Origin: a virus
Lineage: Duplodnaviria > Caudoviricetes
Reading direction: 5' to 3' (one strand)
IMG/VR virus record: IMGVR_UViG_3300044556_000025
Coordinates: 28,564-92,563 of that record
Length of the DNA: 64,000 nt
Shown here: positions 33,684 through 51,686 of the stretch, one piece after another
Layout of the letters: each line of letters opens with the position of its first letter
Numbering within the stretch: the stretch's first letter is position 1
Notes under the pieces: generated by a model
The model's database searches: none
What the model was told of the DNA's origin: nothing
The model's input: only the letters and a program-made list of their open reading frames with translations
Translations under genes and position numbers: made by a program

Positions 33684-33832
33684 TGAACGAGAAGAAGCAG
33701 GCGCGTCTCGTGGAGCGTGGTCGCAACGAGCTGAACGGCGGAACATACGAGACGCGGGACATGGGCAACGGTCACGGCTTTTATGCGGACTTATACTTTG
33801 CATGGGGAAAGACGAAGGATTACAAGCGGTGA
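33683..33832 (+). CDS. 49-aa hypothetical protein (not in the ORF track)
   Basis: TGATG-coupled start; MNEKKQARLVERG...WGKTKDYKR*; overlaps the next GTG. Confidence 0.55.
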   Translation: MNEKKQARLVERGRNELNGGTYETRDMGNGHGFYADLYFAWGKTKDYKR

Positions 33833-34044: not shown

Positions 34045-34046
34045 CG

Positions 34047-34325
34047 ATAGCTAAGTTTCGCAAGAATCCGGTAGAGGTCGAAGCCTTTCAGATCTCGATG
34101 GACACTATGTGCAAACGCGAGTACCCCCAGTGGTTTTCCAAATCAGCAGCACAAGGTATCGTTAATATATCTGAGAACCCGAGCTACCCGGTTGCGTGCA
34201 CCATCAAGACGCTTGAAGGCGATATGAATGCATACATCGGCGATTACATCATCAAAGGCGTCAATGGCGAGCTCTACCCATGCAAGCCGGACATTTTCGA
34301 GAGAGGTTCCAGTGATGAACAATGA
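34047..34325 (+). CDS. PGDYG-like phage protein paralogue with ATA at the expected start (possible pseudogene)
   Basis: AKFRKNPVEVEAF...TLEG...GDYIIKGVNGELYPCKPDIF; tagcgATA here versus (t/c)agcgATG in neighbouring genes. Confidence 0.65.
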   Translation: MAKFRKNPVEVEAFQISMDTMCKREYPQWFSKSAAQGIVNISENPSYPVACTIKTLEGDMNAYIGDYIIKGVNGELYPCKPDIFERGSSDEQ

Positions 34326-34761
34326 TCTTGAGGACATCGCCAATCGAGTCATACGCGGCGATTTCGGCAATGGTGAGGACCGTGTGAAGGCTCTCCGTGA
34401 AGCTGGATATTGCTACGAAGAGGTCCAGAACAGGGTCAATGAGCTTCTCGGCGCGTTGGTGCCGGTACGCATTCCCAAAACGATCGGCACAAGCACACCC
34501 GGGTGCTGGATTGTATATTCTGACCAGCCCTGTAGCTGCGTCTGCATGGGCGACATGGTCGATGTCTATCACGATGCAGGCTGCAAAGAAAGCGGGCTCC
34601 TCACCGATGTCCAGTATGATCGCTTCGGCAAGCTGTCCATGGTATGCCTCAAGAAAGAGATAACAGGACCTGGATGGACCAAGTTCTGGCTTGGCGGTTC
34701 GGTGAAGGTCCAGTGGGTCCGCCATCCGACCGCCGTCTGCCATCACAGGGAGGGCAAATGA
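34315..34761 (+). CDS. Protein with N-terminal CW_7 (Cpl-7) cell-wall-binding repeat
   Basis: LEDIANRVIRGDFGNGEDRVKALREAGYCYEEVQNRVNELL. Confidence 0.75.
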   Translation: MNNDLEDIANRVIRGDFGNGEDRVKALREAGYCYEEVQNRVNELLGALVPVRIPKTIGTSTPGCWIVYSDQPCSCVCMGDMVDVYHDAGCKESGLLTDVQYDRFGKLSMVCLKKEITGPGWTKFWLGGSVKVQWVRHPTAVCHHREGK

Positions 34762-35018
34762 AGGCATATCTGATGAACCATGACGTGAACCTGGGCTACG
34801 GCGTAACCGAGTGGTGGAAGACCGAGGAAGAGGAAATCCTCTGCGTGCAATTCTACTCCGAAATAGGCGCGACTATGGTCTTCCCGTATGACATGGAGAA
34901 GGACCGTGTTCAGCACTGGAATCCTCTCTTGATGGGGCACAAGGACATGACCGGTGGCAGGGCCATGCAGGAGCTTGGCTATGAGCCGGTGGAAGGGGAC
35001 GAAGATGGCACCGACTAG
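34758..35018 (+). CDS. Hypothetical protein (island)
   Basis: GGAGG RBS; ATGA overlap with the previous gene. Confidence 0.7.
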   Translation: MKAYLMNHDVNLGYGVTEWWKTEEEEILCVQFYSEIGATMVFPYDMEKDRVQHWNPLLMGHKDMTGGRAMQELGYEPVEGDEDGTD

Positions 35019-35319
35019 CAACGAGCGCCGCGAGGTGGCGGCAAGGCTGAGGACTGAAGTCGGAGAGGATGAGTGTATCGACTATGCCGTGTTCCGAATC
35101 ATCAACGAGGCTCTTCTAATTAACGGCGCGTGGGGAGCGAAGGCAGCACGCATCCTTGCCGACCTCATAGACCCGACGTGCAAGGTAAGCTCCGTGGAGA
35201 CCTACGATGACGAGCTTGGCCAGCTTGAGGGCTGGGAGTTCCACCTGACATGTGGCCATAGCTTCCAGCGGCCATGGAACGAACCACAAGCATACTGTCC
35301 AGAATGCGGCGAAAGGTGA
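35005..35319 (+). CDS. ERREVAARLR/LADLIDPTC family protein with Zn ribbon
   Basis: Appears chimeric between the 32784 and 33127 genes. Confidence 0.75.
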   Translation: MAPTSNERREVAARLRTEVGEDECIDYAVFRIINEALLINGAWGAKAARILADLIDPTCKVSSVETYDDELGQLEGWEFHLTCGHSFQRPWNEPQAYCPECGER

Positions 35320-35325
35320 TGGACG

Positions 35326-35559
35326 ATGACTAGTATCGAAGAACGACGCGAGGTAGCGGCTAAACTAAGAAAGTACATTCCCTATGCAGAAATGCATGAC
35401 AAGCAAGGCGATTACGTCATGGAAAGCGACAAATGCGTCGATACTCGTTGTACGCTCTATAACAACATTGCATCTTGCATAGAAGACTGCGGAAACTTCA
35501 ACCTAAGTGCCAAAGAGATATTCACACGTCTCGCCGATCTCATCGACCCGAGCAAATAG
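35326..35559 (+). CDS. ERREVAAKLR/LADLIDP family protein (no Zn ribbon)
   Basis: Shared terminal modules around a unique middle. Confidence 0.7.
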   Translation: MTSIEERREVAAKLRKYIPYAEMHDKQGDYVMESDKCVDTRCTLYNNIASCIEDCGNFNLSAKEIFTRLADLIDPSK

Positions 35560-35605
35560 CTATTTCTTACATTCATACCTCCTCCTTTCGATTGACTATA
35601 TTTAC

Positions 35606-35656
35606 CCTCTTGCCGCGTGAGAAAGCCCCGAGGCTTTAGCCTCGGGGTAGCTCACT
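35606..35656 (+). mobile_element. 51-bp single-hairpin IS200/IS605-derived mini-element, copy A
   Basis: TTAC|cctcttgccgcgtgagAAAGccccgaggctttagcctcggggtagctcact; identical inverted copy at 51402-51452. Confidence 0.85.
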
Positions 35657-35680
35657 GGTTGTAGTTCTATATAGCGAAGC

Positions 35681-35722
35681 GTGCTCTCCGCATATGCGTG
35701 GATGATCCTGTGGGGATGATCT
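35681..35722 (+). CRISPR. Solitary degenerate type I-E-like CRISPR repeat plus a half repeat (no array, no cas genes)
   Basis: GTGCTCTCCGCATATGCGTGGATGATCC followed by tGTGGGGATGATCT. Confidence 0.55.
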
Positions 35723-35777
35723 CACAGCCCAGCCAACCATCTATTTAATCAGAACATATATCTAGATGATTAAATAG

Positions 35778-38700
35778 GTGCGTAAGTATATGGCTGACAA
35801 CAATAACACGAATGCCAATAACATAGACTTCAGTGGCCTTTATCAAGACAATAGGACAGAACAAGACTACTTGAGATCGATAGATCGTCGCCTTAAAGAT
35901 CTAACTTCGCAGCTGTCTAATATGTCACAGGCGTCTGCCCAAGACCGACGAAATAATACGTCTGACCAGAATTGGCGCAACGCAGGCAAAGCAGACGCAC
36001 AAAAAGCTCGCCGTCGTTTACAGAATTCACAAAAAGACTTCTTAGACGGCATAGACGAAGCTGTTTCGCAGGCTCTGGGTCTTTCTGACATGCAGAAGCG
36101 TCTAGAAAAAGCTGCTGACGAGTTTGCCGACGCTTTGGGCGCAAATATAAAAGACATGCCATATAAGCTGGGCAAGAAGTCTACAGAGTACGCAATTTCT
36201 ATATTTGAGTCTGTGCCGGGAGTAAAGCCGCTAGCCGACCAATTAACTAAAAGCCGAAACGCATATTTCGAAGAAGCCCTTAAGTACCAGAAGAACGCGA
36301 CAGAGCGAATCAAAGCGCAGAGAGAAAAAGCGGAGCTAGAAGCCAAGAAACAGCAAATTGCGGCTGAGAAGTCTGAATTTGCAAAAGCTTTCTCGTCTGA
36401 AAAGGGAACAAAGGGATATAACGAAGCTCTAGGTGAATACGACGATCAGCTTTCAGACATAGAAAAGAAGATAGCCGGAATTAAGAAGCCCGGAAACATT
36501 GGGTTCAAAGGCTTAAAAGACGTATTTACGTCTGACATGTCATCATGGAGAGACTTTGCATCTAACGCAAAGTCAACAATAGGCTCTAACTTTATGAGCG
36601 GGTACGGCCTTGTCGGCGACTTGTCAAACGGGGCAGGGAAAGAGCTTTTAGCTAAATTTGCGCCAGACATTGCAGACGCTGTATCTGGTGGGTTGTCGGG
36701 GCTACTTTCTGCCTCGGGAGGACCCGTTGGACTTGCAATAACTGCGGGCGTAGAAGTTATTACAAGCACTATAGACGCAACGTTAGGCAAGAGCCTCGAG
36801 AACGTAGCCGAAGACTTCGATAAGCTGATGAAGGGTCTTGCGACAACCGTAAACCGAGGCGCAGACTCTGCACGCAAGGCAACAGAAGAAGGAAACAAGC
36901 GCTTACGAGCCGATACAGAAACGCTTATTAGAGAGCCCTTCGAAATACTTAAGAAGTCAGCTCAAGAAGTATATGACGCTTGGGACAGCAACGTAAGGCT
37001 TATAAATCAGACTCAAGGGTATTCTAAGACCGATCTCATGAATTTGATGGAGAGCTACTCGTCTCGCTTGAAGTCTGAGGGCCTAACGTCAGAAATTGAC
37101 GCAGCTAACATAACAAACAACTTAGCAAAAGTCCTTCAGTCCGGCCTACAAGGCGACGTTGCGACAGAGTTTGCATACGAAGCTACAAAGCTTAACGCTG
37201 CTATACCGACACAGGACTTCTTCCAGTACGCTAGTACGTATGCGTCTCTAGCCGCAAACGCTGTCAAAGACGGAATGTCTCAAAGCGAAGCTATTAAATA
37301 TGCGACGCAACAATTAGAGCTATTTGCGTCAGACATTGCGTATGCCAGCAGGCAGCTCACTGGCGGGTTCTCGTCTGGGTTGTCTGACGCAGCAGATCTG
37401 TTCCAGAAGGCTGTTCAAATATCTGTAGCTGCAAAGACTAATAACCCGTCAAACCTTGCAGGAACTCTTACGTCTGTCTCAGCTACAGTAGGAGCTGTAG
37501 CACCAGATCTTACGTCATCTATAGTAGACGCTGTATATAATGCGGCTGTAGGAGGAAACAGCAGTCAAATAGTTGCTCTCAGGTCGTTGGCTGGCATCAA
37601 TGCGTCAAATACCGAGTTCTTAAAAGAATTCGCTAACAACCCTCAAGGAATACTATACGATCTATTCTCTAAGCTCGGCAGCATGCAGAAGATGTCTTCT
37701 TCTAACTACATGGAAGTTGCTGAGGGCTTGTCTAACGTATTCGGAATATCTTCAGACGCACTGTCTCGAGTTGACTTTAATTACTTAGCCGACGCTGTTA
37801 AGAGTATGAAAGTCAGCAATTCGTCGCTACAAGAAAATATAAGCTTGCTGAAGTCTGGTCAGTCTACGACAAACGCCGACCAGATGAAGATGGATCAAGT
37901 TAACAAATATATCCTAGACGAAGGCCTCACATACGTACTAGACAACGAAGCGGGTCGCGCAATACAGGAGCACATGTGGGACGAACAAGAGAACATTAAG
38001 CTTATGCAGAATACCTACGGAGTAGAGCTCCGAGGCCAAGCTTTGTCACTCTTAACGTCTATCGGTTCTACAATACAAACTATCCTCGGTTTCTTGAACC
38101 CATTCTCATCATATAACCCACTAACTAATCTGATAAAGACTACGGTAGAAGCTTCCACAGCTGACGACAGCGTTAAGGCAGTTCTCGAAGCCGGAAAGAT
38201 AGGCTCAGGGAATCAAGAAGTTCTTAGCAATCTTACAACTTACGGCAAAGACCTCAATCTAACTAATAGCTATCTGTCTATGATACAGAAAGCCGTTTCG
38301 GGACAGCCTACAAAGTACGAATGGGGCGAGCTTGCTAAGAGTGCGTACAAGAGCTTAGGTACGTCCGCTACGGGCGCACAAATCTCTTCTGGCTCATCGA
38401 TAAACAACGCAAACTACTCTAAAACGATAAATCTTCAGAGAATGGGGTCGAGCTTCTCCAGGATGCTCGATACCATGCCAAACTTCTTTACGTCTACAGT
38501 AGATGACAAAGTTCAGAACGCTATAAAACAAGAGACATCTCGCTTAGCTTCAAATTACGTAAATGAAATATCTAAGAGCACTATATCGAAGACCGTAGAC
38601 GAATATATCGCTAACCCTGAGAAGTATGGAATTGGCGACATTATATACAGCTCTAAGCTTGCGGGAGCTAGCAAAGCGTCGGGGCTTTCTGGTTTCAACG

Positions 38701-39611
38701 AAGAGGTTCAAGCAAGATCGCGTCAACTGGTAGAGCAAAAAGTAATTTCTGATCTTACAGAAAAAGCTAAACAAGACGCTAAAGCCCAAGCTTATCAGAA
38801 CGTCATTACAAAAGCCGATTCCGGATATTACGGAAGCACGGGCTACAATGCGTGGGCAGCGTCTGCGTCAAAGTACGGAATATCCGATCTTGCGTCTGTA
38901 ATGGACGAACTCGGATATACAGAAGCAGACGTGCAAAATTACTTTAACACGTTAGATGCTCAATACGGTCAGCGTGCAACGCAAGAACGCGAAAAGACTG
39001 AGGAAGATTTCTGGCAAAACGTACAAGATCTACTTACGCTTTCAAACTCTTACGTACACGACGTATTTGACAAAGGCGACGTCATGGGCATATTCTGGCC
39101 CGGTATAGACAGCTGGCTCAGCGATATTGACTCTACGGGTACGTCAGGCGGAAAGACAGTAGGCGGGTCCGGGTTCCGCGGTGAGATGAATGAATGGTTC
39201 TATCAAACCGACGCAGACATAAACTCGTTCCATACAGAAATGATAACCCAGTTTAAAGAGTTTAGAAAAGACTGGACAGACTTCTATATCAATCACACAA
39301 CATATACACAGCACCTTACGGGTACGTCTGATGGTAAATCACTCCTAAATCAGCTGGACGAAGTAAAGTCTAAGGAAGGGAAGACGACAGAAGACGTTAT
39401 TAACACGCTGTCTGACGCACTAATGAAGAACAACATAGGCGATCTGCTCGACCCAACAGTGCAAACAAACGTGTTCTTGGCGTCTATATTGCAGGCAGTT
39501 CAAACGATTGTTCAGCAAAACAACACTCAGGGCAAGCTCAAGCTACCTGACGCAATTTCTGCTCTTGCAACGGGCATGACCGTTAGCACTAATACAAATA
39601 CAAATGCCTAA
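35778..39611 (+). CDS. Tape measure protein
   Basis: 1277 aa, Ala/Ser/Gln-rich and helical; follows the chaperone in gene order; start may be the ATG at 35790. Confidence 0.8.
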   Translation: MRKYMADNNNTNANNIDFSGLYQDNRTEQDYLRSIDRRLKDLTSQLSNMSQASAQDRRNNTSDQNWRNAGKADAQKARRRLQNSQKDFLDGIDEAVSQALGLSDMQKRLEKAADEFADALGANIKDMPYKLGKKSTEYAISIFESVPGVKPLADQLTKSRNAYFEEALKYQKNATERIKAQREKAELEAKKQQIAAEKSEFAKAFSSEKGTKGYNEALGEYDDQLSDIEKKIAGIKKPGNIGFKGLKDVFTSDMSSWRDFASNAKSTIGSNFMSGYGLVGDLSNGAGKELLAKFAPDIADAVSGGLSGLLSASGGPVGLAITAGVEVITSTIDATLGKSLENVAEDFDKLMKGLATTVNRGADSARKATEEGNKRLRADTETLIREPFEILKKSAQEVYDAWDSNVRLINQTQGYSKTDLMNLMESYSSRLKSEGLTSEIDAANITNNLAKVLQSGLQGDVATEFAYEATKLNAAIPTQDFFQYASTYASLAANAVKDGMSQSEAIKYATQQLELFASDIAYASRQLTGGFSSGLSDAADLFQKAVQISVAAKTNNPSNLAGTLTSVSATVGAVAPDLTSSIVDAVYNAAVGGNSSQIVALRSLAGINASNTEFLKEFANNPQGILYDLFSKLGSMQKMSSSNYMEVAEGLSNVFGISSDALSRVDFNYLADAVKSMKVSNSSLQENISLLKSGQSTTNADQMKMDQVNKYILDEGLTYVLDNEAGRAIQEHMWDEQENIKLMQNTYGVELRGQALSLLTSIGSTIQTILGFLNPFSSYNPLTNLIKTTVEASTADDSVKAVLEAGKIGSGNQEVLSNLTTYGKDLNLTNSYLSMIQKAVSGQPTKYEWGELAKSAYKSLGTSATGAQISSGSSINNANYSKTINLQRMGSSFSRMLDTMPNFFTSTVDDKVQNAIKQETSRLASNYVNEISKSTISKTVDEYIANPEKYGIGDIIYSSKLAGASKASGLSGFNEEVQARSRQLVEQKVISDLTEKAKQDAKAQAYQNVITKADSGYYGSTGYNAWAASASKYGISDLASVMDELGYTEADVQNYFNTLDAQYGQRATQEREKTEEDFWQNVQDLLTLSNSYVHDVFDKGDVMGIFWPGIDSWLSDIDSTGTSGGKTVGGSGFRGEMNEWFYQTDADINSFHTEMITQFKEFRKDWTDFYINHTTYTQHLTGTSDGKSLLNQLDEVKSKEGKTTEDVINTLSDALMKNNIGDLLDPTVQTNVFLASILQAVQTIVQQNNTQGKLKLPDAISALATGMTVSTNTNTNA

Positions 39612-39655
39612 GACTCTTATATGGGACAACGTACATAATAAAACGAGGAGAAGTA

Positions 39656-40048
39656 ATGAAGAAATATATTAAAGCTAATCAAGTCTCTATAACTAAGAGG
39701 CTTAGTTCACACAGAAACTCTAATGTCAGATATCTTGTAACAATATACGATGACGGGATGGGTTATAACCCATACGGAGACTCAGATCCGTATATGATGG
39801 CATTCGAAATTGTATGTGAGAACCCAAAGACTCCGTTTGCTAATTATTACGCTTCAAAAGAAAGTGAAAACAACTCTGCAATTATTTACGAGGAGTCTAA
39901 TGATAAAACGTCTAGGCGTCAGGTCGAGGCAGAGTCTGTTAGTGATGCAATGAGCGTTCAGGACGCAATATACGATGTAATAGATGTTATGGACGAATTC
40001 ACATTAAATATGGATCTTCGAAATAACAAATTTACCTCGTTGCGATAA
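39656..40048 (+). CDS. Hypothetical protein (MKKYIKAN N-terminus)
   Basis: GAGGAG RBS. Confidence 0.75.
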   Translation: MKKYIKANQVSITKRLSSHRNSNVRYLVTIYDDGMGYNPYGDSDPYMMAFEIVCENPKTPFANYYASKESENNSAIIYEESNDKTSRRQVEAESVSDAMSVQDAIYDVIDVMDEFTLNMDLRNNKFTSLR

Positions 40049-40103
40049 TCTGTGCACAGCACGCTAGTTTACGTTAAATCACTTCTCGAAGACGAGGGAA
40101 TAA

Positions 40104-43100
40104 ATGGATTTCATTAGGTTTGCGGCTGACACAACAAACATATTTCCCGCAGCTAACTCAAAGACAGGAAACCAGCTACTGACTGAGTTTAATCTTAAGT
40201 CTCGAGAGAGCGTGGTTACGCCGTCTGCCGTAAAATATAGTATCGGACCGTCGTTTACGCACTCCCAAGATGACTTCGTAGTTCGACTACAGCAAGACGA
40301 ACTAGGTGTTGCCGTATCGTCTACGACTCTCGAAATTACTGACGGTCGAGCTGTAATAAACGGTCACTACATCGAATCTTTAGCAAACGTAACTGTAGAC
40401 ATTGCCGAAGCTAACAGAGAGCTAATGTCTAAAGGGCTTTCTCCTCTAAAAGGTCATCTTGCAATTGGCTTGCGAGCTTTCTATTCGACAGAGCAGACGT
40501 TAGCTGCGTCAATGATTGCCGAAGACAGCAATGACATGTGGCCAGGAATTCAGATTGTAATCTTGCCAATTGGCAATATTGCTAACGGATACTTTGTAAC
40601 GCCCACAGATAGCCCAGAAAACGAAAACCTAGTCACCGCACACTTAAAGCTTGCTGACTTCTACTACATAAACGGTGGAGTTAGGGACATTCGTCAAAAC
40701 GAAAATAAAGTTCAATGCCTCGAAGCTATGCGAGTTAGCGATTTTGACGGGCTACTTGACAAGCACTATGTTCGCAAAGACGGACTTAATCCCAAAAAGA
40801 TGTACACTATGGCTGGAAAGTCTAACGACGGATCCAAAGTCTCTAATTCATCAACGTGGTGTGATTCGACAGATAGTTTGATTGTTTGGGACAGGGTTCC
40901 AGAACTTGCCGATTCTTCTGATGATACGACCTATGTGAATACTAATACGACATCTGGCGAGCGGCATCGTTTAGCTAAGAGTCTAGACGAAGCGTCTGTC
41001 ATGTATTGGGGTAACGGAGGATTCAATAAGTACAACGCGCAAGACAATAAGTCCCGCTACTCAGATGAAACAATAGCTCTCGTACTACCCCACAAAGAGC
41101 CCGATGGCGGCATGTGGTCTACTGACGGGAAACAACAGCACTATCTCCCGAGGATCATGGCATTGCCGCAAGCTGACTACTCATTAGAGACTCCCGGCAC
41201 GGTAACGTCTTCTTACACAAAGTCTATGAAGGCTATTAGTGAGAAGATAAACAATTTCTATCATCTCCCTTACGGAAAACAGCGTGCATATATTACGACA
41301 CTCGAATCGCGAACTCAGTCAACCTCAGGCCAAGACTATACGGCAGCTGGCAAGCCTCATACACTGCCTCACATTAACCCGAGTTGGTCTGTCGGCGACT
41401 ACGTACTAGTCGAGAAAGACAATACCGTTTCGTCTTCGACAGAATCTGGTATACAAGCGCCGTCTACACTATATGTAGTGCTGCCGCCTCAAGTAAGCCA
41501 GGTTACGCTCTTAGACAGATCTCCGAAGACAGACCCCGACGATCTTCCCGTAGGCTTTAACGGCACAGAGATCATGAAAGTCGTTCAGCCTTACGGCGGC
41601 AACGATGATGATGACAAAGACACAGTTCTTTCGACAATTGCAAGCCAATTCCAGTTCGACAATCAAGATGCTTATAACGAGACGTTCGGAATCCAGTCTA
41701 ACTATTCGGGCTCTACCGTAACGCCTTTGCGCGGCACGTTCACACAAATTTCTAAGTCCGCTACATATGCGACGGGTGAGTTCAACTCGACTGGCAAAGC
41801 TACCCCACCGATCTTACTCGAAGGCGAGAACGAGAAAGACAGATATTTCGACTATCAAGACTATGTTACTCTTCAAGTTACGGGGGTTCCTGACAGCGAA
41901 GACAGTAACGGCAACGTAATAAAGAAAGACTATTACTATTATTTCGCTGTAACTAACGTAGTAGCTAACACTACTTCATACTCTGATCCAATCGTACTTA
42001 CCGGTTCGATTCCTTATGCGACTACAGACACTATCGGCGGCTTCTTAAACGTAGACGAAACAAACACGGATGCTGGGTACATTATTCGTGACGAAACCGG
42101 CCACCTTAAGCTTCTCGATTATTCACTTCTTCGCTCTGGCATTTTAGCCTACCAGCTAGGTCACGACTATACGTTCGGTGACGGTCTGGGATACGAAGAA
42201 ATACAACAAGAGCTCGATGAGTATGTAAACGACCGAGTCGCTTTCTTAGACGATGACGAATACAAGTCGCAGTTTGCGACCTACCACCCAGAAGGTTCTA
42301 AGTTCCGCACCCCCATTGTTAAAATTTCTCTGAGTTTGCCAAAGTCCGATTCTGCCGTAACTGTAAGGGTAAAGGACATCGATAGTAGATTTGGAACTGC
42401 TGTTCATATTGCTATTACAGGCGAAGCTAACAAGAATACGACAGTAGTAATAGAGAATTGCGAGAAGCTTATACTGTCGTATGTTAAGTCTTCTAACACC
42501 ATAGAAAACTACTCGTCTCTAACAACAAACGAAGACTTCCCTCGTATAGTTGTCAAAAATTGCTGTGTCTTATACGACCCTAGTGCAATAAATGCCGTTT
42601 ACCTCTCACAGCAAGGATCGGGAATTGAAGGTACGGGATTTGACGCCTGCTCGCTGTGGCTTCCTCTAGAAGATGATTTAGCTACCGACGAAGCAAACGT
42701 TTCTAAATTAACTCTTGATGGTATGACAATACGAGCAACGACTACCCCGGTAATTGCCGAATCTAAAGACTTCTGGACTGAAAGCGTCGTAAACGATTAT
42801 CACTATTCTTATGCTCTACAGAGCTTGACGTTTAACGAAAAACTTCAAGTTGTCGGAATGGGCATTTATATTAGAAACGACTCTACTGAAAACATAAAGT
42901 TAGGCAAGACTTTAGTTGTCGGCAAGTTCGATCTACATTCTAACATTCACATGGAATATCCAGAGCTTGCAGTCGCTAACTCTAACATAACCATCGAGGG
43001 GTCTTTCGTAACGACCTATCCGACTGACTCTAGCGTAGGCGCGACGGGATCGGGCTATATAACTACTGACACTAAGTTTGCAATGAACACGGCTACTAGT

Positions 43101-43247
43101 CATCTATCAATATTGTCTGATTCGTATCTTGTTACAGACTTTGCGTCTCCCGACAAATACGAGTACGGTGCGTCAATAGACGAGTTCGAAGCTTCTAAGT
43201 TCCGAGTTTTCTATGGTTCCGGAATTGCTAATTGGCCTCAGAATTAG
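40104..43247 (+). CDS. Large virion structural (baseplate/tail) protein
   Basis: 1047 aa, beta-rich, in the tail module after the tape measure. Confidence 0.6.
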   Translation: MDFIRFAADTTNIFPAANSKTGNQLLTEFNLKSRESVVTPSAVKYSIGPSFTHSQDDFVVRLQQDELGVAVSSTTLEITDGRAVINGHYIESLANVTVDIAEANRELMSKGLSPLKGHLAIGLRAFYSTEQTLAASMIAEDSNDMWPGIQIVILPIGNIANGYFVTPTDSPENENLVTAHLKLADFYYINGGVRDIRQNENKVQCLEAMRVSDFDGLLDKHYVRKDGLNPKKMYTMAGKSNDGSKVSNSSTWCDSTDSLIVWDRVPELADSSDDTTYVNTNTTSGERHRLAKSLDEASVMYWGNGGFNKYNAQDNKSRYSDETIALVLPHKEPDGGMWSTDGKQQHYLPRIMALPQADYSLETPGTVTSSYTKSMKAISEKINNFYHLPYGKQRAYITTLESRTQSTSGQDYTAAGKPHTLPHINPSWSVGDYVLVEKDNTVSSSTESGIQAPSTLYVVLPPQVSQVTLLDRSPKTDPDDLPVGFNGTEIMKVVQPYGGNDDDDKDTVLSTIASQFQFDNQDAYNETFGIQSNYSGSTVTPLRGTFTQISKSATYATGEFNSTGKATPPILLEGENEKDRYFDYQDYVTLQVTGVPDSEDSNGNVIKKDYYYYFAVTNVVANTTSYSDPIVLTGSIPYATTDTIGGFLNVDETNTDAGYIIRDETGHLKLLDYSLLRSGILAYQLGHDYTFGDGLGYEEIQQELDEYVNDRVAFLDDDEYKSQFATYHPEGSKFRTPIVKISLSLPKSDSAVTVRVKDIDSRFGTAVHIAITGEANKNTTVVIENCEKLILSYVKSSNTIENYSSLTTNEDFPRIVVKNCCVLYDPSAINAVYLSQQGSGIEGTGFDACSLWLPLEDDLATDEANVSKLTLDGMTIRATTTPVIAESKDFWTESVVNDYHYSYALQSLTFNEKLQVVGMGIYIRNDSTENIKLGKTLVVGKFDLHSNIHMEYPELAVANSNITIEGSFVTTYPTDSSVGATGSGYITTDTKFAMNTATSHLSILSDSYLVTDFASPDKYEYGASIDEFEASKFRVFYGSGIANWPQN

Positions 43248-43259
43248 GCGGATGACAAC

Positions 43260-43907
43260 GTGTTTAGCTATGACATAATAAAGATATTACTTTCAGACGA
43301 AGGCTATCTTCCTGACTACCCTCCGCACCTTATTGGCGACGACGAGATGTGTAAAGCTTTCTTAGCTCCCAAAGGTGAAGATGCAGAGTTCCAGTACTTC
43401 GTAGACAATTATTATCTTGCCGACGGTCTAGGCAACGATAATAAAATGACAGACGCATATAAAACACTTCAAACAGCTATCAGGTATCATCTATGCCGTG
43501 CGTCTACTTCTGTTGAAGAGTTTAACGTACCTATACCGAATTGGGTGCAAGCGTACATGTTTGGAGCCGTTGTTTCTCATAACAGTTCGCAGCAGGACAA
43601 ACACTGGATGCTGACCCAGATGAACGAAGACAATATAGATGACGTAATTACTCCGCAAATCCAGTCAGACATATTAGATGCTTCTTACAACATTATTCAT
43701 CAATACAATAACTCAGTGAGGAAAGTAACGTTAAGTCAGTGTCTGTCTGGAGTTAAAGATGAACATAAAAATGAATGTGAAGAAGAGCTCTCTTACTGGG
43801 GAGTTTTAGACAATTTGAGATCAGACTATGGTTTAGACTCCCGACCTCCTTTTATGTTTGGAGAGTTATCGTTTATAAAATACTTAAGAGTTAGGGCTTC
43901 TGCCTAA
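43260..43907 (+). CDS. Hypothetical protein (tail module)
   Basis: 215 aa; coupled to the next gene. Confidence 0.65.
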   Translation: MFSYDIIKILLSDEGYLPDYPPHLIGDDEMCKAFLAPKGEDAEFQYFVDNYYLADGLGNDNKMTDAYKTLQTAIRYHLCRASTSVEEFNVPIPNWVQAYMFGAVVSHNSSQQDKHWMLTQMNEDNIDDVITPQIQSDILDASYNIIHQYNNSVRKVTLSQCLSGVKDEHKNECEEELSYWGVLDNLRSDYGLDSRPPFMFGELSFIKYLRVRASA

Positions 43908-44914
43908 TGAAGTACGTCGCAATATATCCAAACGATACGTTAAAGACATTCTCCGACCGAGTCGGATATCAGAATGTTAATCAGATCTTGTCTGACAATG
44001 GAATGAAGAGAACTCCTAATATTGGGAAACAGTGGCAAGCTCTTAAGAATAAGTATATAGAAACGACAGACGACCCTACATACGAAAGAAAAGTAGCGAT
44101 ATTAAACCGGTTTGTCGACAACTCAGACATTTACGAAGAGGCAGCTACGTCAGACTCTGACGGCTGGAAAGTTTTAGATGCTTCAAATAACTTCAAAAAC
44201 TATCTCTACGTTAATGACTCTATAGAGGATTCAATACCTGATTCGTATCAAGTTTTGGGTAACAGTATTTCAGTAACAAAAGACGTACAAGTGCTTGTAA
44301 ACAATCAGTTAATTACGGATAGCGTTGATTCTAACCTATTTAATTCGATACAGACTTCGCCGTTTGTCGGTCTTTCGGGTAATGCAGTGTCTTCTACTAA
44401 CCCGTTGCAATGGTTTAAGATACCATTTGACAAAGTAATGTTATATTCTTCCTTGTCAGATAGTACGATGGCAATACCTGCGTATCCAGAGTCTATTTCT
44501 GACGGTCACGTCGCAAACTATACACAGATGCCGGATCTCATTTATCAGTATGAGCCATGGCAGATGTACGTAAGCTCAGGTCCTCGTCAAGTTACGTTTT
44601 CTTTCGATCTTCACAGAGACATGTGGACGGGAGATCACAAAGACGGCAAAGCCGCCGAGTTAATACGATTCTGCGAAGCTAACTGCTACCCACGATACAA
44701 AGGTGCGTCTGTCGTACCTGCAACTGTTACACTTTACATAGCTGGAGAGCCCGAAATCCACGGAGTTATGACATCCGTTAACAAAACGTTTGACGGTCCG
44801 CTAGGGCAGCGAGATGACTTCTATCTTCATTTCACGTTAGATTTAACAATTATCGAGGTGTCTCAGGACGCTCTAAGTTATGACTCAGTAATACAAAAGT
44901 CGCTAATCGGGTAA
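43907..44914 (+). CDS. Putative baseplate tube-initiator (gp48/gp54-like) protein
   Basis: YPESISD...ANY...EPWQMY.SSGPRQVTFSFDLHR...YPRY...GVMTSV. Confidence 0.6.
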   Translation: MKYVAIYPNDTLKTFSDRVGYQNVNQILSDNGMKRTPNIGKQWQALKNKYIETTDDPTYERKVAILNRFVDNSDIYEEAATSDSDGWKVLDASNNFKNYLYVNDSIEDSIPDSYQVLGNSISVTKDVQVLVNNQLITDSVDSNLFNSIQTSPFVGLSGNAVSSTNPLQWFKIPFDKVMLYSSLSDSTMAIPAYPESISDGHVANYTQMPDLIYQYEPWQMYVSSGPRQVTFSFDLHRDMWTGDHKDGKAAELIRFCEANCYPRYKGASVVPATVTLYIAGEPEIHGVMTSVNKTFDGPLGQRDDFYLHFTLDLTIIEVSQDALSYDSVIQKSLIG

Positions 44915-44927
44915 GAGGTGAAAACTA

Positions 44928-45371
44928 ATGGCCTACGAATCACGCTTATTACACGATACGACAAAACCTTACGAGACAGTCGATTATCACGGAATAGAAT
45001 ATACGGTATGCCGAAACTTCGACTATATTTCTAGATACAAGCGACTTCGTCAAGTTATTCACTATACGGACGAAGATCACAATCGCTTCATTGCTCTCGA
45101 AACACAAAACGGGTACGATTATTCTAACGTAGAAGTAGAGTATTACATAGTACCGAATGACTACGAGAATCGTCTTGACCTAATAGCTTACGACAAACTA
45201 GGGGCAGCGTCTTATGCGTGGGTTATCGCATACCTCAATAATATAGAAGACGGCTATACAGTACTCGAAGGTCAGACGATAATGATACCGAAAGCACTGT
45301 CTGACCTCTTTAAGAGCGGATGTGTGTTAAGCTCTGTGCCGGCAACGTCTCTAAATCTAGGGACGGAATAG
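44928..45371 (+). CDS. Baseplate wedge LysM/gp53-like protein
   Basis: ENRLDLIAYDKLG...WVIAYLNNI...GQTIMIP. Confidence 0.75.
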   Translation: MAYESRLLHDTTKPYETVDYHGIEYTVCRNFDYISRYKRLRQVIHYTDEDHNRFIALETQNGYDYSNVEVEYYIVPNDYENRLDLIAYDKLGAASYAWVIAYLNNIEDGYTVLEGQTIMIPKALSDLFKSGCVLSSVPATSLNLGTE

Positions 45372-45372
45372 T

Positions 45373-46824
45373 ATGTTACGTCAGTCGTTCTGCAACTTCA
45401 TGTTAGCGGGCGTCAGTTTGTCCGAGTTTGGACTGAAAATACCTTCTAACTTCTCGTCACTCATACTAACAAACGCAGAAATATCTAGTATGACTACATG
45501 GGAGTTGAATTGTACTGTTGGCGGTGACGCTTCTCAAAACATTAATGTCTCTGCGTTCGAAGCATTGATATACAGCGCAGCGCAGTCGTCTATGGGCAAC
45601 AAGTCGGGAATACCAGTATCGTTTTTGTTTGGCTGGCTAGATGACAATGGAAACGTAGACAAATATCTGTCTTACCAGGGGTTCACGCTACAGTTTTCTG
45701 TTAGTACGTCCGGACAATATCTTCAATACAAACTTACGGGATATGCGACATGTGCAATACAGACGCAAATGCCCGTATTGAACATCCCTAGAGTATCAGG
45801 AATTGTTCAGCCGTCAGCTATTGTCGAAGCGCTAGCTAAAGCTGTCGGGGCTACTAGCTATTACGATCTTGACATAGATCATAACGACGCCCCGACTCTC
45901 GTGAGCCACGGAGACTTAACTACGTCTTTCAATAAGTACGTAGGCGGAACGTACAACGGTCAGGACGACTATGACTCGTTCCCGGGTTTGCTTCCGTTGT
46001 CAAAGTCATACAGCTCGTCTCGAGACGCAGCCGGCCTAGACAGAAACAAAGCGAAGTCTTTGTCATCTGTGTTAAACAACGTTACACAACAGCCCGTTTC
46101 TAACTTCTTGAAGAAATCGTACACAGACAATACGGTACAGAGCTCGTCTTTTTCATATTGGATTGACGAACCGACAATGACGTCTAAAGGCGTAATTCAT
46201 TATAAGAGCAACGCTGGGTTGATGGGTTCGTATACGTCAAATATACTTCAATATGGTACGTCAACGTCTAACATACTTCAGCTGTCTGGCAGTTACGACG
46301 GCGTAGCTTATAACATGACAGATATGAGCTTCTCGTCCTTGGGCTTTGCCGTCGATGGATCTGGCAACACTGTCGCACAAGGGGCGCAAGTCGTAAACTC
46401 TTGGAGTAGTTCTTTAGCTCAGGTATTTCAGCAAGCTAACATAATAAACGACGTGAACGCACTAGCCTCTCAGTTTTCTGGGGACTTCACAATAATACTT
46501 CCCGGAACAGCGTCAACATACGAAGTCGCTCAGCCCGTATCTCTTCTGGTAATGTCTGGAAACACGCTGTCGCCTATTTCTGGCATATACAATATAGTGT
46601 CTGTAGAACATCAGATATCTGTAACATATCTCACAGTTCTTAAGATACAACGACTTCAAATGTCGTCTGCCAATCAAGTAGCGTCACAACAAGGAATAAT
46701 AATACGAGGATCATCTTCTTATCCTTCGACGTCTTACAATACTACGTCTAATATAATATCGACGTCAAAAGTTGACTTCGGTAAGATTTACCCAACGTTT
46801 CAGGACATGAGGACGTCGTACTAA
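45373..46824 (+). CDS. Putative baseplate hub protein (gp27/gpD-like)
   Basis: Position; FLFGW; C-terminal SGIYNIVSVEHQIS..YLTVLKIQR. Confidence 0.6.
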   Translation: MLRQSFCNFMLAGVSLSEFGLKIPSNFSSLILTNAEISSMTTWELNCTVGGDASQNINVSAFEALIYSAAQSSMGNKSGIPVSFLFGWLDDNGNVDKYLSYQGFTLQFSVSTSGQYLQYKLTGYATCAIQTQMPVLNIPRVSGIVQPSAIVEALAKAVGATSYYDLDIDHNDAPTLVSHGDLTTSFNKYVGGTYNGQDDYDSFPGLLPLSKSYSSSRDAAGLDRNKAKSLSSVLNNVTQQPVSNFLKKSYTDNTVQSSSFSYWIDEPTMTSKGVIHYKSNAGLMGSYTSNILQYGTSTSNILQLSGSYDGVAYNMTDMSFSSLGFAVDGSGNTVAQGAQVVNSWSSSLAQVFQQANIINDVNALASQFSGDFTIILPGTASTYEVAQPVSLLVMSGNTLSPISGIYNIVSVEHQISVTYLTVLKIQRLQMSSANQVASQQGIIIRGSSSYPSTSYNTTSNIISTSKVDFGKIYPTFQDMRTSY

Positions 46825-47327
46825 TGGGCGACATTATAAAGAGCTGCATAATAACACACACTGACGCTAAAGTAGTAAAAACGTACGATATTTCAGGGTA
46901 TGGGGAAAGTTACCACACCTCTATAGATTTGGCGGCGCACGAGGTGTATAGCCCTTGCAGAGGCGTAGCTATTTATGTCGGACTAGTTGACAAAATGCCG
47001 TCAGTTACTGTTCAATACAGCAACAACATCTCTCTTAGGTTTATGCATTTGAAGTCGACAGATATTGTTGCCGGTCAGATAGTTCCATATGACGCTGTAG
47101 TTGGAATAGCTGACGAATATGTAAGCTTTGAATATCTTACTACAGAAGAGCGTCATCCAGGAATCCGCGTTTTCTTCTATACGACGTTAGGCAGCTATAC
47201 ACTCTATAAACAAGACCCGATGTTAGTGTTATCTCAGAACGTAAAGTTTGACAATATGACTCCAATAATACTTACAGAGGGAATTACTGACGCACTGGCA
47301 GAAGACGGTAAGGGTGGAGACGAATGA
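46824..47327 (+). CDS. Degenerate M23-peptidase-like protein
   Basis: HTSIDL...VYSPCRGV...FMHL...V.GQ.V; second HxH motif absent. Confidence 0.5.
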   Translation: MGDIIKSCIITHTDAKVVKTYDISGYGESYHTSIDLAAHEVYSPCRGVAIYVGLVDKMPSVTVQYSNNISLRFMHLKSTDIVAGQIVPYDAVVGIADEYVSFEYLTTEERHPGIRVFFYTTLGSYTLYKQDPMLVLSQNVKFDNMTPIILTEGITDALAEDGKGGDE

Positions 47328-49093
47328 CTTACAGTAAGCTAGCTTCTAAATTCTTACCCGCAAATCATTACTCTCGTGGTCGCTCTGGGAAGAAAATTTG
47401 CAAATTTACGCCTCACTATATGGCAGGGAACTTGACGCTCGAAGGGTGCGTTGGCGTTTGGGTTAATAGAGATGCGTCTTCAAACTATGGAATAGACTCT
47501 AACGGGAATATAGCTTGTTACGTACAAGAAGAAAACAGAGCTTGGACGTCGTCATCTGCGAGTAACGACAATCAAGCTATTACCGTAGAAGTTGCAAATA
47601 TTTCTAACACGACGGGCGAAATAACGAACGCAGCTTGGCAGTCGTTGGTGAGGCTTGCGACAGACGTTTGTCATAGATATAACTTCCGTCTCAATTTTAC
47701 GGGCGACCCGTCGGGCTCTCTAACAATGCACAAGATGTTTTCGAGCACTTCTTGCCCCGGACCGTGGATCGAGTCACATATACGAGAGCTAGCCGATACC
47801 GTTAACAAAAATTTAGACACGGGAAACTTCTCTTATTCTGGTACAGCGTCGGGGTCTTCGAGCTCAGATTCATCTAGCTCTAGTACGAGTATGGGAACGG
47901 CTTATATAACGGACCCCGCAGTGGCTTATGCTGCCGGAATTACCGGCAAGATATTATTTGCTCAAGAAGACATATATCCATATATCATAACAATAAACGA
48001 GCAAACACCCGATCTCGACATTGATAAGCTAAAATCTGCGGATGTTGTAGGCGCATGTATTGACATTGGGTCGTATTTCGACGAAGCTCACAACGTTAGG
48101 CCGACGTTCTTAAATAAGAAGTTAGAGAGGCAGTTCAATCAGTTTAACGAGAAGAATCTAGCTGTTGCTCTCTACAGCACTGTTAGAGCTAGGAATGAAG
48201 ACGAAGTCTTAAAGGAGCTCAAAGAAGTTCGCCTTGCAGTTTTAAGGTTCCCTCCAAACTCTGGGCTTTGGCTGAAGCCAGTATTCTATTCTTCGTCTAA
48301 GTCTGTAAACGACAAACTTATAGACACGTATTACAAAACGCTTTATAAGCTAGGGTTTAACGATCAAGTCGGATTCTATTGTGACAAGTCTCAAATGGAA
48401 CGATTTGACTGGGATAAATATCAAGACAACTGGTATTGGTGGATGGATCGTCATATTAAAGACGTTTCTAAGATTCACCAATTGCCGTCTCCCAAATTCT
48501 TCATGTACGACAACCCAGGTGACGAAGACGCCCTTATTGCCCCTAACTTCGACGCCCTCGCTAATATGTCGTTCGATAGCTCCGGTACAGGGGGTTCTGG
48601 CACTGAGACGTTTGACGCCGGCAGCTCTACGGGGATTGTCATGGTGCCGTCAGGCCTCGGAACATATTGTACGTTCGAAAAAGGTAACATCAACTGGGCT
48701 GCCGGTACTCGACAGAAGAGCTTCTGGGCTAAGAATCCCGGAGTTGACGAGAACGGTATGTATCAGTATAACGGTCGCTACGTAATTGCTATGACAAGCA
48801 CGTTCGGCGATGCAGGATCTATGGTAGACATATACTTTAGAAACGGAAAGACGTTACACGCTATCTTAGGTGACACAAAGAACACGGGTGACGCCGGTGC
48901 AACAAAGTGGGGCCACGACGGCGGACGCAATATGGTCGAGTTCATCGTTCGGTCTGATCACAAAGCCGGATCTTCTTCTTCGACGTGGTATGGCAACGTG
49001 GGCGCTGCTCAAGGGTGGCTTTCGTCTTGGTGGAACTCTAACGGATATAACTCAGGAATTTCTAAAGTAGACAAACGCGGGAGTGTTTTATAA
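47324..49093 (+). CDS. Virion-associated lysin: Amidase_2 domain, GH25-like middle domain, 3D/RlpA-like C-terminal domain
   Basis: TPHYMAG...SSNYGI...RAWTSS...AITVEVAN...HKMF..T.CPG; C-terminal GRYVIA...G.MVDI...AILGDTK. Confidence 0.8.
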   Translation: MTYSKLASKFLPANHYSRGRSGKKICKFTPHYMAGNLTLEGCVGVWVNRDASSNYGIDSNGNIACYVQEENRAWTSSSASNDNQAITVEVANISNTTGEITNAAWQSLVRLATDVCHRYNFRLNFTGDPSGSLTMHKMFSSTSCPGPWIESHIRELADTVNKNLDTGNFSYSGTASGSSSSDSSSSSTSMGTAYITDPAVAYAAGITGKILFAQEDIYPYIITINEQTPDLDIDKLKSADVVGACIDIGSYFDEAHNVRPTFLNKKLERQFNQFNEKNLAVALYSTVRARNEDEVLKELKEVRLAVLRFPPNSGLWLKPVFYSSSKSVNDKLIDTYYKTLYKLGFNDQVGFYCDKSQMERFDWDKYQDNWYWWMDRHIKDVSKIHQLPSPKFFMYDNPGDEDALIAPNFDALANMSFDSSGTGGSGTETFDAGSSTGIVMVPSGLGTYCTFEKGNINWAAGTRQKSFWAKNPGVDENGMYQYNGRYVIAMTSTFGDAGSMVDIYFRNGKTLHAILGDTKNTGDAGATKWGHDGGRNMVEFIVRSDHKAGSSSSTWYGNVGAAQGWLSSWWNSNGYNSGISKVDKRGSVL

Positions 49094-50683
49094 ATGGCAA
49101 ATGACATTGTAGACGCGTTTGTAAATAAAGCTCTAAGTTACGAAGGCAAAGGAGAATCGTACTGGGCATCAACTCACGCAAAATACTATTATCCGAGAGC
49201 TTGGTGTGCGGGGTTCGTATGCGGCGTAGCAAACGAAGTAGGAATACTAGGGAAAGTTATAGACTTTAGCCTCGGAGCACACATATGCGCACACTCTGTT
49301 ACAAATCATGGAGGAACGTGGCACGATGGCAGTTCTTCGTACACGCCTCAACGCGGAGATCTTGTTAACTTTGTATGGAACGGTGGCACGTGGGCAGATC
49401 ACATAGGAATTGTAACTAGTTGCTCTAACGGTACGGTAAACACGATAGAGGGTAATGCATCATCAGCTGTTCATCAGAGGCATTATAGTCGTTCTAGCAG
49501 AGTATTATTAGGGTTTGGTACGCCTAACTGGCCGGCTGTCGGAGGAGTAATAACGTCCGGTGAGAGCGACGCTATCGGATCATCAGGTACGACAATATAT
49601 GGTGTCTTATTCTCTGAGACAAACACTCGAAAGGACGCTATACTACGAGAAGCTGCGTATTTAAAAACGACATACGAACCAAACTCTACTAAAGTTAAAC
49701 AGTACGACCCTATAGCTACGTCTACCCCAATAAAACTCTCAGTAATAAATTACTCAGACTTGTTTAAGACGTTTTGGGACGTTGGCGCGAAGACACTAAA
49801 TATTTCGGGTACTTCGAGTAGTTCGTCTCTTGGGTATGACTATTCTAAATTGCCCGCTGTCGTAAAACAGACAGTGGAGTTTCTAGTCGGCAAAGGCTTA
49901 AACAATGCTGCCGCTTGCGGAATATGCGGGAACATCCAACAAGAGTCTAGCTTTAACGTAGGCGCAGCTGGCGGAGGTCTTTGCCAATGGACAGGAAGCC
50001 GAGGCGCAGCAATGAGGGCAATGGCTGGCGCAAACTGGGCTACGAACTTAACCGGCCAGCTTAACTATCTTTGGTACGAATTGTCTTCGGGATACCAAAA
50101 TATGCTAAATAGCTGGAAAAGTTTGCCTAATACAGAAGCTGGTGCTCGTCAAGCTGCGGCTGACTTCTGCAACCAGTTCGAACGTCCTGGGATTCCGATG
50201 CTTGAGAAAAGGCAAAATTATGCCGCTCAGTTCTTCAAAGCTATTGTTCAAGTTGCGACTTCATCGTCTTCTAACTTCTCAAGTATAGACGCTCGAGGGT
50301 TGTCATCTAAGCGACAAACAATACTCAACGTTGCGCAGCAAGAGCTCGCAAAGAAGACAAGATACGTATGGGGCGGAGAGAGGTCCGGCGTAGGCTTAGA
50401 CTGCTCAGGCTTCTGCAGGATGTGTTATATGTCTATCGGAATAACCTTGCCACACCAGTCGGAGAGCATGCGAGACGTTGCACCTCAAAGGCTCCCCGTG
50501 AATCAAGCCGTTGCCGGCGACATATTATGGACTAGCGGACACGTGGCTCTATATATAGGCAACGGTAAGACAATAGAAGAATACCAAGGCGGGCCTTCTA
50601 ATACGTATTCAAACCCTGGAGGTCCCATTGGCTCCTTAAATGTAGGTAATAGATTTAAGCTCTGTCTACACTGGGATATATAA
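49094..50683 (+). CDS. Virion-associated lysin: CHAP, phage tail lysozyme and NlpC/P60 domains
   Basis: AWCAGFV...HIGIV...IEGN; AACGICGNIQQES...GLCQW...FERP; YVWGG...DCSG...GHVALYIG. Confidence 0.88.
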   Translation: MANDIVDAFVNKALSYEGKGESYWASTHAKYYYPRAWCAGFVCGVANEVGILGKVIDFSLGAHICAHSVTNHGGTWHDGSSSYTPQRGDLVNFVWNGGTWADHIGIVTSCSNGTVNTIEGNASSAVHQRHYSRSSRVLLGFGTPNWPAVGGVITSGESDAIGSSGTTIYGVLFSETNTRKDAILREAAYLKTTYEPNSTKVKQYDPIATSTPIKLSVINYSDLFKTFWDVGAKTLNISGTSSSSSLGYDYSKLPAVVKQTVEFLVGKGLNNAAACGICGNIQQESSFNVGAAGGGLCQWTGSRGAAMRAMAGANWATNLTGQLNYLWYELSSGYQNMLNSWKSLPNTEAGARQAAADFCNQFERPGIPMLEKRQNYAAQFFKAIVQVATSSSSNFSSIDARGLSSKRQTILNVAQQELAKKTRYVWGGERSGVGLDCSGFCRMCYMSIGITLPHQSESMRDVAPQRLPVNQAVAGDILWTSGHVALYIGNGKTIEEYQGGPSNTYSNPGGPIGSLNVGNRFKLCLHWDI

Positions 50684-50686
50684 AGT

Positions 50687-50965
50687 ATGATAGTATATGG
50701 ATATGCAAAAGACTATTCTTATACGTCTGACGGGACGTTAATGATACAAGTACGGATACCGTCAGTAGACGGTCCCGTAAGCCAGTCAGAATATAACGGT
50801 CAGAAGGTAACTAATTACAAGAGTGATTCAGATCTTTCATGGTACCCTTCGTTATTATTGCCCCACTTGCCTAATACGAACGAAGTAGTAGCTCTGACAT
50901 CTATAAATAGTTCTTGCAACGACTGGCTTGTAATCGGTCTAATGGGGTCAGAATATGGTGTTTAA
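50687..50965 (+). CDS. Putative baseplate spike OB-fold protein (gp5/gpV N-terminal-like)
   Basis: IQVRIPSVDGP...W...LP...EVV...VIG. Confidence 0.6.
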   Translation: MIVYGYAKDYSYTSDGTLMIQVRIPSVDGPVSQSEYNGQKVTNYKSDSDLSWYPSLLLPHLPNTNEVVALTSINSSCNDWLVIGLMGSEYGV

Positions 50966-50968
50966 CAT

Positions 50969-51361
50969 ATGAAAACGTCTAGTTGGGCTTTCCCTAATTG
51001 TATAAACGTAGCGCAGAACTCAGTAGAAATACTGGAAGACGAAACGTCTGTCGTGAATAGATCTCGCTTATTATTATTGACACAGCCAACAGAAGTTGTT
51101 TACGAGCCTAACCAAGGCGTAGGCATGAAAGAGTTTTTGTGGCACTACAACAACGAAAATGTCAAGGCTCTGCTACAAGACAAAATCAAAAATCAGCTAC
51201 GTATTCACGAACCGCAATGCAACGCACAGAATACAGAGTTTGCAGACGGGTTATTGTTTACGGGGAATGATAAAGACAGTATAGACGCAAATTACAACGA
51301 TCTAGATATGACAGTAAAAATAGAGACTAAATTCGGTACTACCGCCACAGTTAACATATAG
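50969..51361 (+). CDS. Baseplate wedge/sheath initiator (gp25-like)
   Basis: LLLLTQPTE...P.QGVG...IKNQLRIHEP. Confidence 0.75.
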   Translation: MKTSSWAFPNCINVAQNSVEILEDETSVVNRSRLLLLTQPTEVVYEPNQGVGMKEFLWHYNNENVKALLQDKIKNQLRIHEPQCNAQNTEFADGLLFTGNDKDSIDANYNDLDMTVKIETKFGTTATVNI

Positions 51362-51401
51362 GATGATTGAAATAATATGAGATAAGTAGCTAGAGCCGAT
51401 A

Positions 51402-51452
51402 AGTGAGCTACCCCGAGGCTAAAGCCTCGGGGCTTTCTCACGCGGCAAGAGG
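51402..51452 (-). mobile_element. 51-bp single-hairpin mini-element, copy B, inserted in a terminator-like hairpin
   Basis: Exact reverse complement of 35606-35656, preceded by TTAC on the minus strand. Excision restores agagccgatagtaa-ttc-ttactatcggctct. Confidence 0.88.
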
Positions 51453-51686
51453 GTAATTCTTACTATCGGCTCTTATATATAGAATAAATACATAGTATAC
51501 TATCCACGTGTTAGGATATACGTATGTCAGAAGATTACAGTAACCCTAGATTACGAAAAGCTTAAGATGACAGTAGCCGTAGAAACTAAATTTACAAAAA
51601 CGGTAGAAGTTAAACTTTAGTTCGTTAATAATACTAAATACTAAAGTTGTAATCTTGCATTTTTAGTGTTTAGGAGCGTAGTTAAT

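Follow-up and report, generated by a model that had tools for sequence, protein, structure and literature searches.

Two identical 51-nt sequences in a bacteriophage genome match core-deleted, terminal-only forms of one IS605-type insertion sequence

We investigated two identical 51-nt elements, copies A and B, in a 64,000-nt stretch of phage DNA (hereafter the window), which corresponds to bases 28564-92563 of the 92.5-kb IMG/VR virus record IMGVR_UViG_3300044556_000025 (Caudoviricetes; G000 below), estimated to be 61% complete and with a GC content of 42%. Judged from their sequence, both 51-mers are terminal-only, i.e. core-deleted, derivatives of one insertion sequence (IS) of the IS200/IS605 family, of the IS605 type. 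Each retains the left linker, the left guide AAAG, one hairpin and the right tail TAGCTCAC(T), and contains no genes. This type of element has already been described, and what is new is the phage setting.

Positions 35602-35656 (+) and 51402-51456 (-) of the window are reverse-complementary at 55/55 nt, made up of TTAC and the 51-mer. This pair is the longest inverted repeat of the window (100% identity, the runner-up having 28 nt at 82%), and its 30-nt core occurs exactly twice in the window at up to 3 mismatches, compared to 0 occurrences in 100 dinucleotide shuffles. The whole 92.5-kb record contained no further copies beyond A and B. A sequence-only reading of the window had described two identical 51-bp copies with TTAC directly 5' and no target duplication, in the layout TTAC, 16 nt, AAAG, hairpin and TAGC-TCAC-T. 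The 55/55 match and the lack of a target duplication at copy A and copy B bear this out, and the sequence and the fold, which gives the predicted 22-nt hairpin, agree with the layout. The features of the two copies are as follows.

35602..35605, + strand: TTAC target tetranucleotide of copy A (left cleavage site, outside the element); TTAC likewise stands 5' of copy B, of the third copy (L003) and of the parent IS (L009) described below
35606..35656, + strand: copy A, fused-end element, its first 39 nt being the left end and its last 34 nt the right end of L009
35606-35621, + strand: left linker of copy A, 16 nt
35622-35625, + strand: left guide AAAG of copy A
35626-35647, + strand: 22-nt hairpin of copy A, CCCCGAGGC-TTTA-GCCTCGGGG
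35648-35656, + strand: right-end tail of copy A, TAGC-TCAC-T, the last T possibly belonging to the flank
35652-35655, + strand: predicted right cleavage site TCAC of copy A
51402..51452, - strand: copy B, fused-end element, identical to copy A
51433-51436, - strand: guide AAAG of copy B
51411-51432, - strand: hairpin of copy B
51403-51406, - strand: TCAC of copy B
51453..51456, - strand: TTAC target tetranucleotide of copy B (GTAA on the + strand), within the interrupted phage hairpin

The parent was sought with the exact 22-nt hairpin in the JGI metagenomes, which gave 22 loci. At two of these 22 loci, L009 and L027, the hairpin is followed by the tail TAGCTCACT, as in the 51-mer, but is preceded by a different upstream sequence that ends in GAAG. 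L009 is a 1984-nt metagenome contig consisting of TTAC and one complete 1980-nt IS605-type element. On the minus strand, it starts with TTAC, CCTCTTGCCGCGTGAGAAAG and the hairpin and finishes with GAAG, the hairpin and TAGCTCACT, with a subterminal hairpin at each end and no terminal inverted repeats. Its genes encode a 461-aa TnpB, an RNA-guided nuclease, and, on the opposite strand (divergent), a 137-aa TnpA, a Y1 HUH transposase. In profile searches the TnpA matched PF01797 (E 5.4e-18, profile positions 4-121 of 121), and its translation exhibits the H-L-H motif and the GYF...S.G tyrosine motif, while the TnpB (OrfB_IS605 with a zinc-ribbon TNB domain) matched PF01385 (E 6e-9) and PF07282 (E 4.6e-12). 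The divergent order of tnpA and tnpB in L009 is that of IS605.

Both end matches between the 51-mer and L009 (prefix of 39 nt, suffix of 34 nt) are exact and overlap in AAGCCCCGAGGCTTTAGCCTCG, which is an exact 22-nt direct repeat located at L009 positions 22 and 1951, 1.9 kb apart. The 51-mer therefore corresponds to the left end joined to the right end, with the core deleted. An IS608-like origin, with left- and right-end features sharing one hairpin, had been proposed from the sequence alone together with a search for a full-length IS having these ends, and L009, which carries exactly these ends, supports the proposal. L027 presents a second right end, 100% identical to that of L009 over 127 nt and embedded in different flanking DNA, and L022 carries a diverged relative. 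The cluster of the L009 TnpB at 99% identity comprises 46 member sequences on many contigs of up to 128 kb; the Atlas neighbours of this TnpB are mostly viral. The region L027:1-13475 has a GC content of 57% and encodes a Dam-type methyltransferase, a polynucleotide-kinase-like ATPase, a phosphoesterase and many unknown open reading frames (ORFs) on the same strand, and in view of this gene content L027 may itself be a phage or a mobile element.

Copy B interrupts a hairpin of the phage. In-silico deletion of 51402-51452 yields AGAGCCGATAGTAA-TTC-TTACTATCGGCTCT, a perfect 14-bp stem with a folding energy of −21.8 kcal/mol, and refolding thus confirms the earlier claim that a perfect 14-bp hairpin is restored when copy B is removed. 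Because of this restoration, copy B is an insertion and TTAC a part of its target. The two parts of the interrupted hairpin are the following.

51392..51401, + strand: left part of the arm (agagccgata), 3' of the last tail/baseplate gene (50969-51361); the restored empty allele has a perfect 14-bp stem
51453..51473, + strand: remainder (gtaa-ttc-ttactatcggctct), from the fold of the restored allele

Guide pairing as in IS608 would put the right-end cut after TCAC, the final T being therefore the first base of the flank. A T is found 3' of TCAC (TCGC in L022) at 4/4 distinct junctions of this tail type, i.e. window A, window B, L027 and L022; L009 terminates in the same T, but at the contig end, and L003 has a C there. 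When only 50 nt are deleted at copy B and the terminal T is kept, the same stem is obtained with one bulged A (−18.0 kcal/mol), and the hairpin is perfect only when the T leaves with the element. As the evidence on the terminal T is mixed, the length of the element is given as 50-51 nt (right boundary +/-1 nt).

The ends were then compared with the recognition rules of IS608. This element is cut 3' of TTAC, 19 nt 5' of the foot of the left hairpin (IPL), and 3' of TCAA, 10 nt 3' of the foot of the right hairpin (IPR); a 4-nt guide located 5' of each hairpin recognises the corresponding cleavage site, and mutation of a guide abolishes the synaptic complex (PMC3201880). The guides are AAAG on the left and GAAT on the right, with the pairs A+16:T-3 and A+17:T-4 (PMC5934647). 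Guide positions 1 and 2 pair with positions 2 and 1 of the cleavage site, respectively (PMC3201880, PMC5934647). Considering the left and right guide/cleavage pairs of IS608 together, we infer a pairing of guide position 4 with position 4 of the cleavage site. In the element described here, the left guide AAAG matches TTAC, located 20 nt from the hairpin foot, and the hairpin length, 22 nt, is that of IS608. At the right end of the parent, the guide GAAG predicts TC?C, and TCAC is observed 4 nt past the hairpin foot, while in the relative L022 GAAG is found with TCGC. Since guide and cleavage site co-vary, the sequences support an element that works like IS608. TTAC is present at 4/4 left junctions (window A, window B, L003 and L009).

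With IS608/IS605 of Helicobacter pylori the element shares the TTAC target, AAAG directly 5' of a 22-nt subterminal hairpin, a left cleavage about 19-20 nt upstream and a right cleavage a few nt downstream, and guide/cleavage complementarity at both ends. It differs from IS608 in the right guide/cleavage pair (GAAG/TCAC here, GAAT/TCAA in IS608), in the distance of the right cleavage from the hairpin foot (8-9 nt compared to 10 nt), in the left linker (16 nt compared to 15 nt), and in that the window carries the fused ends only, without genes.

Terminal-only elements have been reported in Haloquadratum walsbyi, where two near-terminal palindromes form a 22-bp repeat in the palindrome-associated transposable element (PATE) HqIRS46 and a 19-bp repeat in ISHwa23 (Dyall-Smith et al. 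2011, PMC3119063). Deletion between these repeats reduces both to 52-bp "terminal-only" versions, and in four cases the complete element is present in one Haloquadratum strain and the collapsed version in the other (PMC3119063). The elements of the window are, in the same way, non-coding, with fused termini and one copy of the palindrome, and the palindromes of their parent form a direct repeat around the deleted core. Common to both systems are the gene-less fused termini of an IS605-type element or PATE and the lack of a target duplication. They differ in length (52 bp in Haloquadratum, 50-51 nt here), in the repeat (22 bp or 19 bp there, an exact 22-nt repeat here) and in the host, a haloarchaeal chromosome in the one case and a bacteriophage in the other; moreover, ISHwa23 is TnpB-only, whereas the parent here has divergent TnpA and TnpB. 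Haloquadratum also presents complete/collapsed allele pairs at one site, while none was found here in IMG/VR or INPHARED. The novelty that the sequence-only reading attached to an "unusually small" unit was overstated, given that 52-bp terminal-only derivatives of IS605-type elements arising by deletion across 19-22-bp palindrome repeats were published in 2011 (PMC3119063).

Two-ended PATEs are known from Geobacillus stearothermophilus (Meers et al., PMC10055086) and, with a length of 271 nt, from Halanaerobium (PMC7290912). Like the 51-mers, these are gene-less IS200/IS605 derivatives with a presumed mobilisation by TnpA in trans; however, they keep both hairpins, often with an omega-RNA scaffold, in about 160-400 nt, whereas the 51-mer has one chimeric hairpin and no omega-RNA. 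Repetitive extragenic palindromes (REPs) and bacterial interspersed mosaic elements (BIMEs), together with their REP-associated tyrosine transposases (RAYT, TnpA-REP), share with the 51-mer a single GC-rich hairpin, a conserved tetranucleotide 5' of its foot and a Y1 HUH enzyme, but REPs have GTAG and a solitary RAYT gene where we observed AAAG and a TnpA/TnpB parent IS. An assignment of the 51-mers to REPs or their doublets (REPINs) with RAYT was rejected, the guide being AAAG and not GTAG, the hairpin single and not a doublet, and the parent an IS with both TnpA and TnpB.

REP/BIME-like units do carry the same hairpin at about 15 loci from unrelated sediment-metagenome contigs and Dehalococcoidales metagenome-assembled genomes (L006, L008, L010-L017, L019, L020, L023, L025, L028, L029). 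They read GTAG, the same 22-nt hairpin, a second hairpin (CCCGACCC-taaa-GGGTCGGG) and CTAC. L010, with two hairpins, and L012, with one, share identical flanks, so that hairpin number is polymorphic at one locus.

Further TTAC-flanked copies had been suggested as a check of the sequence-only reading, and one was found. Using a hairpin 23-mer and a left-end 19-mer against IMG/VR, only L003 was matched, a 27-kb phage contig in which a third copy lies between two genes, directly 3' of TTAC. This contig has a GC content of 42.2%, the same as this phage, and no tblastx similarity to the present record, for which reason the L003 and window copies are taken as non-orthologous. The L003 copy (L003:7066-7128, -) is identical over the left 42 nt and has the tail CTTTCTCAC in place of TAGCTCACT. 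With this tail, the imperfect outer stem GTGAG...CTCAC becomes a perfect palindrome with an 18-bp stem (−23.6 kcal/mol, z −9), which would be the expected product of a quasipalindrome template-switch correction.

No other miniature copy was detected. The hairpin search of the GTDB representative genomes gave 4 unrelated hits, the 22 JGI loci contained right ends of the IS or of its relative (L022) three times and no miniature copy, and the searches of INPHARED and PLSDB returned nothing meaningful. A full-length IS or a close relative of its TnpB was not found in IMG/VR. Empty or full-length alleles at the two window sites, a further check that had been proposed, were not found in IMG/VR or INPHARED: neither flank had a blastn match in INPHARED, no IMG/VR loci related by flanking proteins were found, and the exact search for the reconstructed empty sites gave none. 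One neighbour protein has a 96%-identical match (P0001) on an ENA contig.

Regarding the origin of the copies, the sequence-only reading had offered two routes, the mobilisation of a miniature element in trans and a scar left by recombination of the left with the right hairpin. We place at an even chance the collapse of the copies in place, or on arrival, from full-length insertions. At each phage site, a full-length IS would have inserted as single-stranded DNA 3' of an intergenic TTAC, without target duplication, and its core would then have been lost by deletion between the 22-nt hairpin repeats, either later, by replication slippage or single-strand annealing, or on arrival, during second-strand synthesis. 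The resulting copies would be inert, stable scars. Such scars would not be removable by precise excision, since of the two guides only the left one is kept at the fused hairpin: AAAG would mispair with the right site TCAC, guide position 1 setting an A against a C, and with a single hairpin only one of the active sites in the TnpA dimer would be armed. Non-excisable scars would accumulate, while intact insertions would be lost by the frequent precise excision typical of the IS200/IS605 family, reported for GstTnpA as 0.7% per overnight culture (PMC10055086). The identity of the copies does not require common descent, as the product of a hairpin x hairpin deletion is deterministic.

In-place collapse is favoured by the absence of an intact TnpA in either phage record and by the finding that no miniature copy was met outside phages, though right ends of the IS or its relative were. 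Between Haloquadratum strains, complete elements have been directly observed to collapse in place, by deletion across palindrome repeats of 22 bp and 19 bp, to a length of 52 bp (PMC3119063). Several observations weigh against it. All viral-contig copies (3/3) are miniature forms, with no full-length copy or close TnpB relative in IMG/VR, and in-place collapse would therefore need a full-length insertion on three separate occasions, with the same deletion every time. No relative of this phage was found with a full-length IS at such a site, and six strain-specific 52-bp insertions in Haloquadratum were read by their authors as possible mobilisation (PMC3119063).

Such mobilisation is the principal alternative. 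The 50/51-mer would be a non-autonomous one-hairpin PATE that arose in a single core deletion. TnpA supplied in trans, from full-length copies in the host or in a co-infecting element, would then have carried it to two sites here and to one in the L003 phage. We regard this origin as a serious possibility that falls somewhat short of an even chance, and give the unit of 50-51 nt and one hairpin clearly less than an even chance of being an active non-autonomous transposon. In favour of mobility, the three copies all lie 3' of TTAC in two phage contigs without detectable mutual similarity, no IMG/VR contig has a full-length copy, and the 51-mer retains the left cleavage context with the AAAG guide, the 22-nt hairpin in intact form and, on the right, the cleavage tetranucleotide TCAC. 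REP-associated Y1 transposases cut both sides of single hairpins, which also speaks for mobility. So does the 52-bp version of ISHwa23 with its strain-specific insertions (PMC3119063). Nevertheless, the right guide GAAG is lost in the 51-mer and TCAC stands opposite AAAG with a C-A mismatch, while in IS608 the mutation of a guide is incompatible with the synaptic complex and the replacement of A:T guide/target pairs strongly lowers integration (PMC3201880, PMC5934647). Furthermore, the TnpA dimer normally binds two hairpins, non-viral contigs (JGI, GTDB) yielded no miniature copies, and only three copies are known, with no sign of a burst.

Both window copies are intergenic and, in inverted orientation, lie at the two borders of a tail/baseplate/lysin module (35778-51361; PHROG matches). 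To the left of copy A, a GC-rich cassette array ends at 35559 with the stop of its last gene, and to the right a 1277-aa gene begins at 35778. Copy B lies 40 nt past the last gene of the module (50969-51361, gp25-like). This placement, and the fact that stable hairpins could affect transcripts regardless of origin, would suit phage-built regulatory elements (terminators, RNA-stabilising hairpins or recombination sites flanking the tail module) with an incidental likeness to an IS, but we consider this very improbable, given that both parts of the 51-mer are exact matches to the ends of a complete element with TnpA and TnpB, that copy B interrupts an older perfect hairpin, and that the same element is present in a different phage and context (L003).

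The two copies provide a fully resolved case of decay of an IS605-type element to about 51 nt, in which the parent, the crossover window and the insertion site are all mapped. They also show that phage genomes contain such relics, one of which splits the hairpin that follows a tail module. As the parent TnpA and both ends are available, the transposition of a one-hairpin terminal-only PATE, a question since 2011, becomes testable with few oligonucleotides. Apart from that, this is ordinary transposon decay. If the 51-mer were mobile, few known mobile DNAs would be as small, a Y1 TnpA could cut and rejoin both ends with one hairpin and one mismatched guide, and phages would collect such units from their hosts.

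Several candidate features around the two copies were rejected. A terminator function was discarded, as there is no T-run and the scans show no terminator-like site on either strand at either locus. The promoter scan gave one 9-of-12 promoter-like match per region, within the shuffle expectation, and does not support the splitting by copy A of a sigma-70 promoter, whose TTGACT and TATATA would have a spacing of 19-20 nt in an allele without the insertion. The 84 nt to the right of copy A were considered as a decayed second copy and dismissed: window 35657-35745 has no significant similarity to the miniature element on either strand, with an alignment score below the shuffle mean. To the left of copy A, window 32000-35560 is a GC-rich block (54-60% compared to 42% for the phage) of small repeated-module genes, which ends 46 nt before the copy and has no similarity to L003, L027 or the IS. 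Between the copies, the 55-nt inverted repeats flank a 15.7-kb tail/baseplate/lysin block, which homologous recombination could in principle invert.

Regarding the source of a transposase, the cognate TnpA was not found in the G000 or L003 records; G000 contains two Y1 TnpA fragments, and L003 none. Both fragments adjoin unrelated TnpB genes (window 6762-8015 and 20138-21685). The first, at window 6606-6689, is a C-terminal fragment of 28 profile positions (25.9 bits) just upstream of the gene for a 417-aa TnpB-like protein (6762-8015). The other belongs to a second IS605-type element at window 19990-21735, in which an N-terminal fragment of 34 positions (20015-20113) runs into the TnpB gene; this TnpB (515 aa, 20138-21685) is 28% identical to the parent TnpB. 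At about 21685-21722 there is a right-end-like GAAG followed by a CCCCTCCTGA...TCAGGAGGGG hairpin, and the second element (19990-21735) shares with L009 a strong strand-composition switch.

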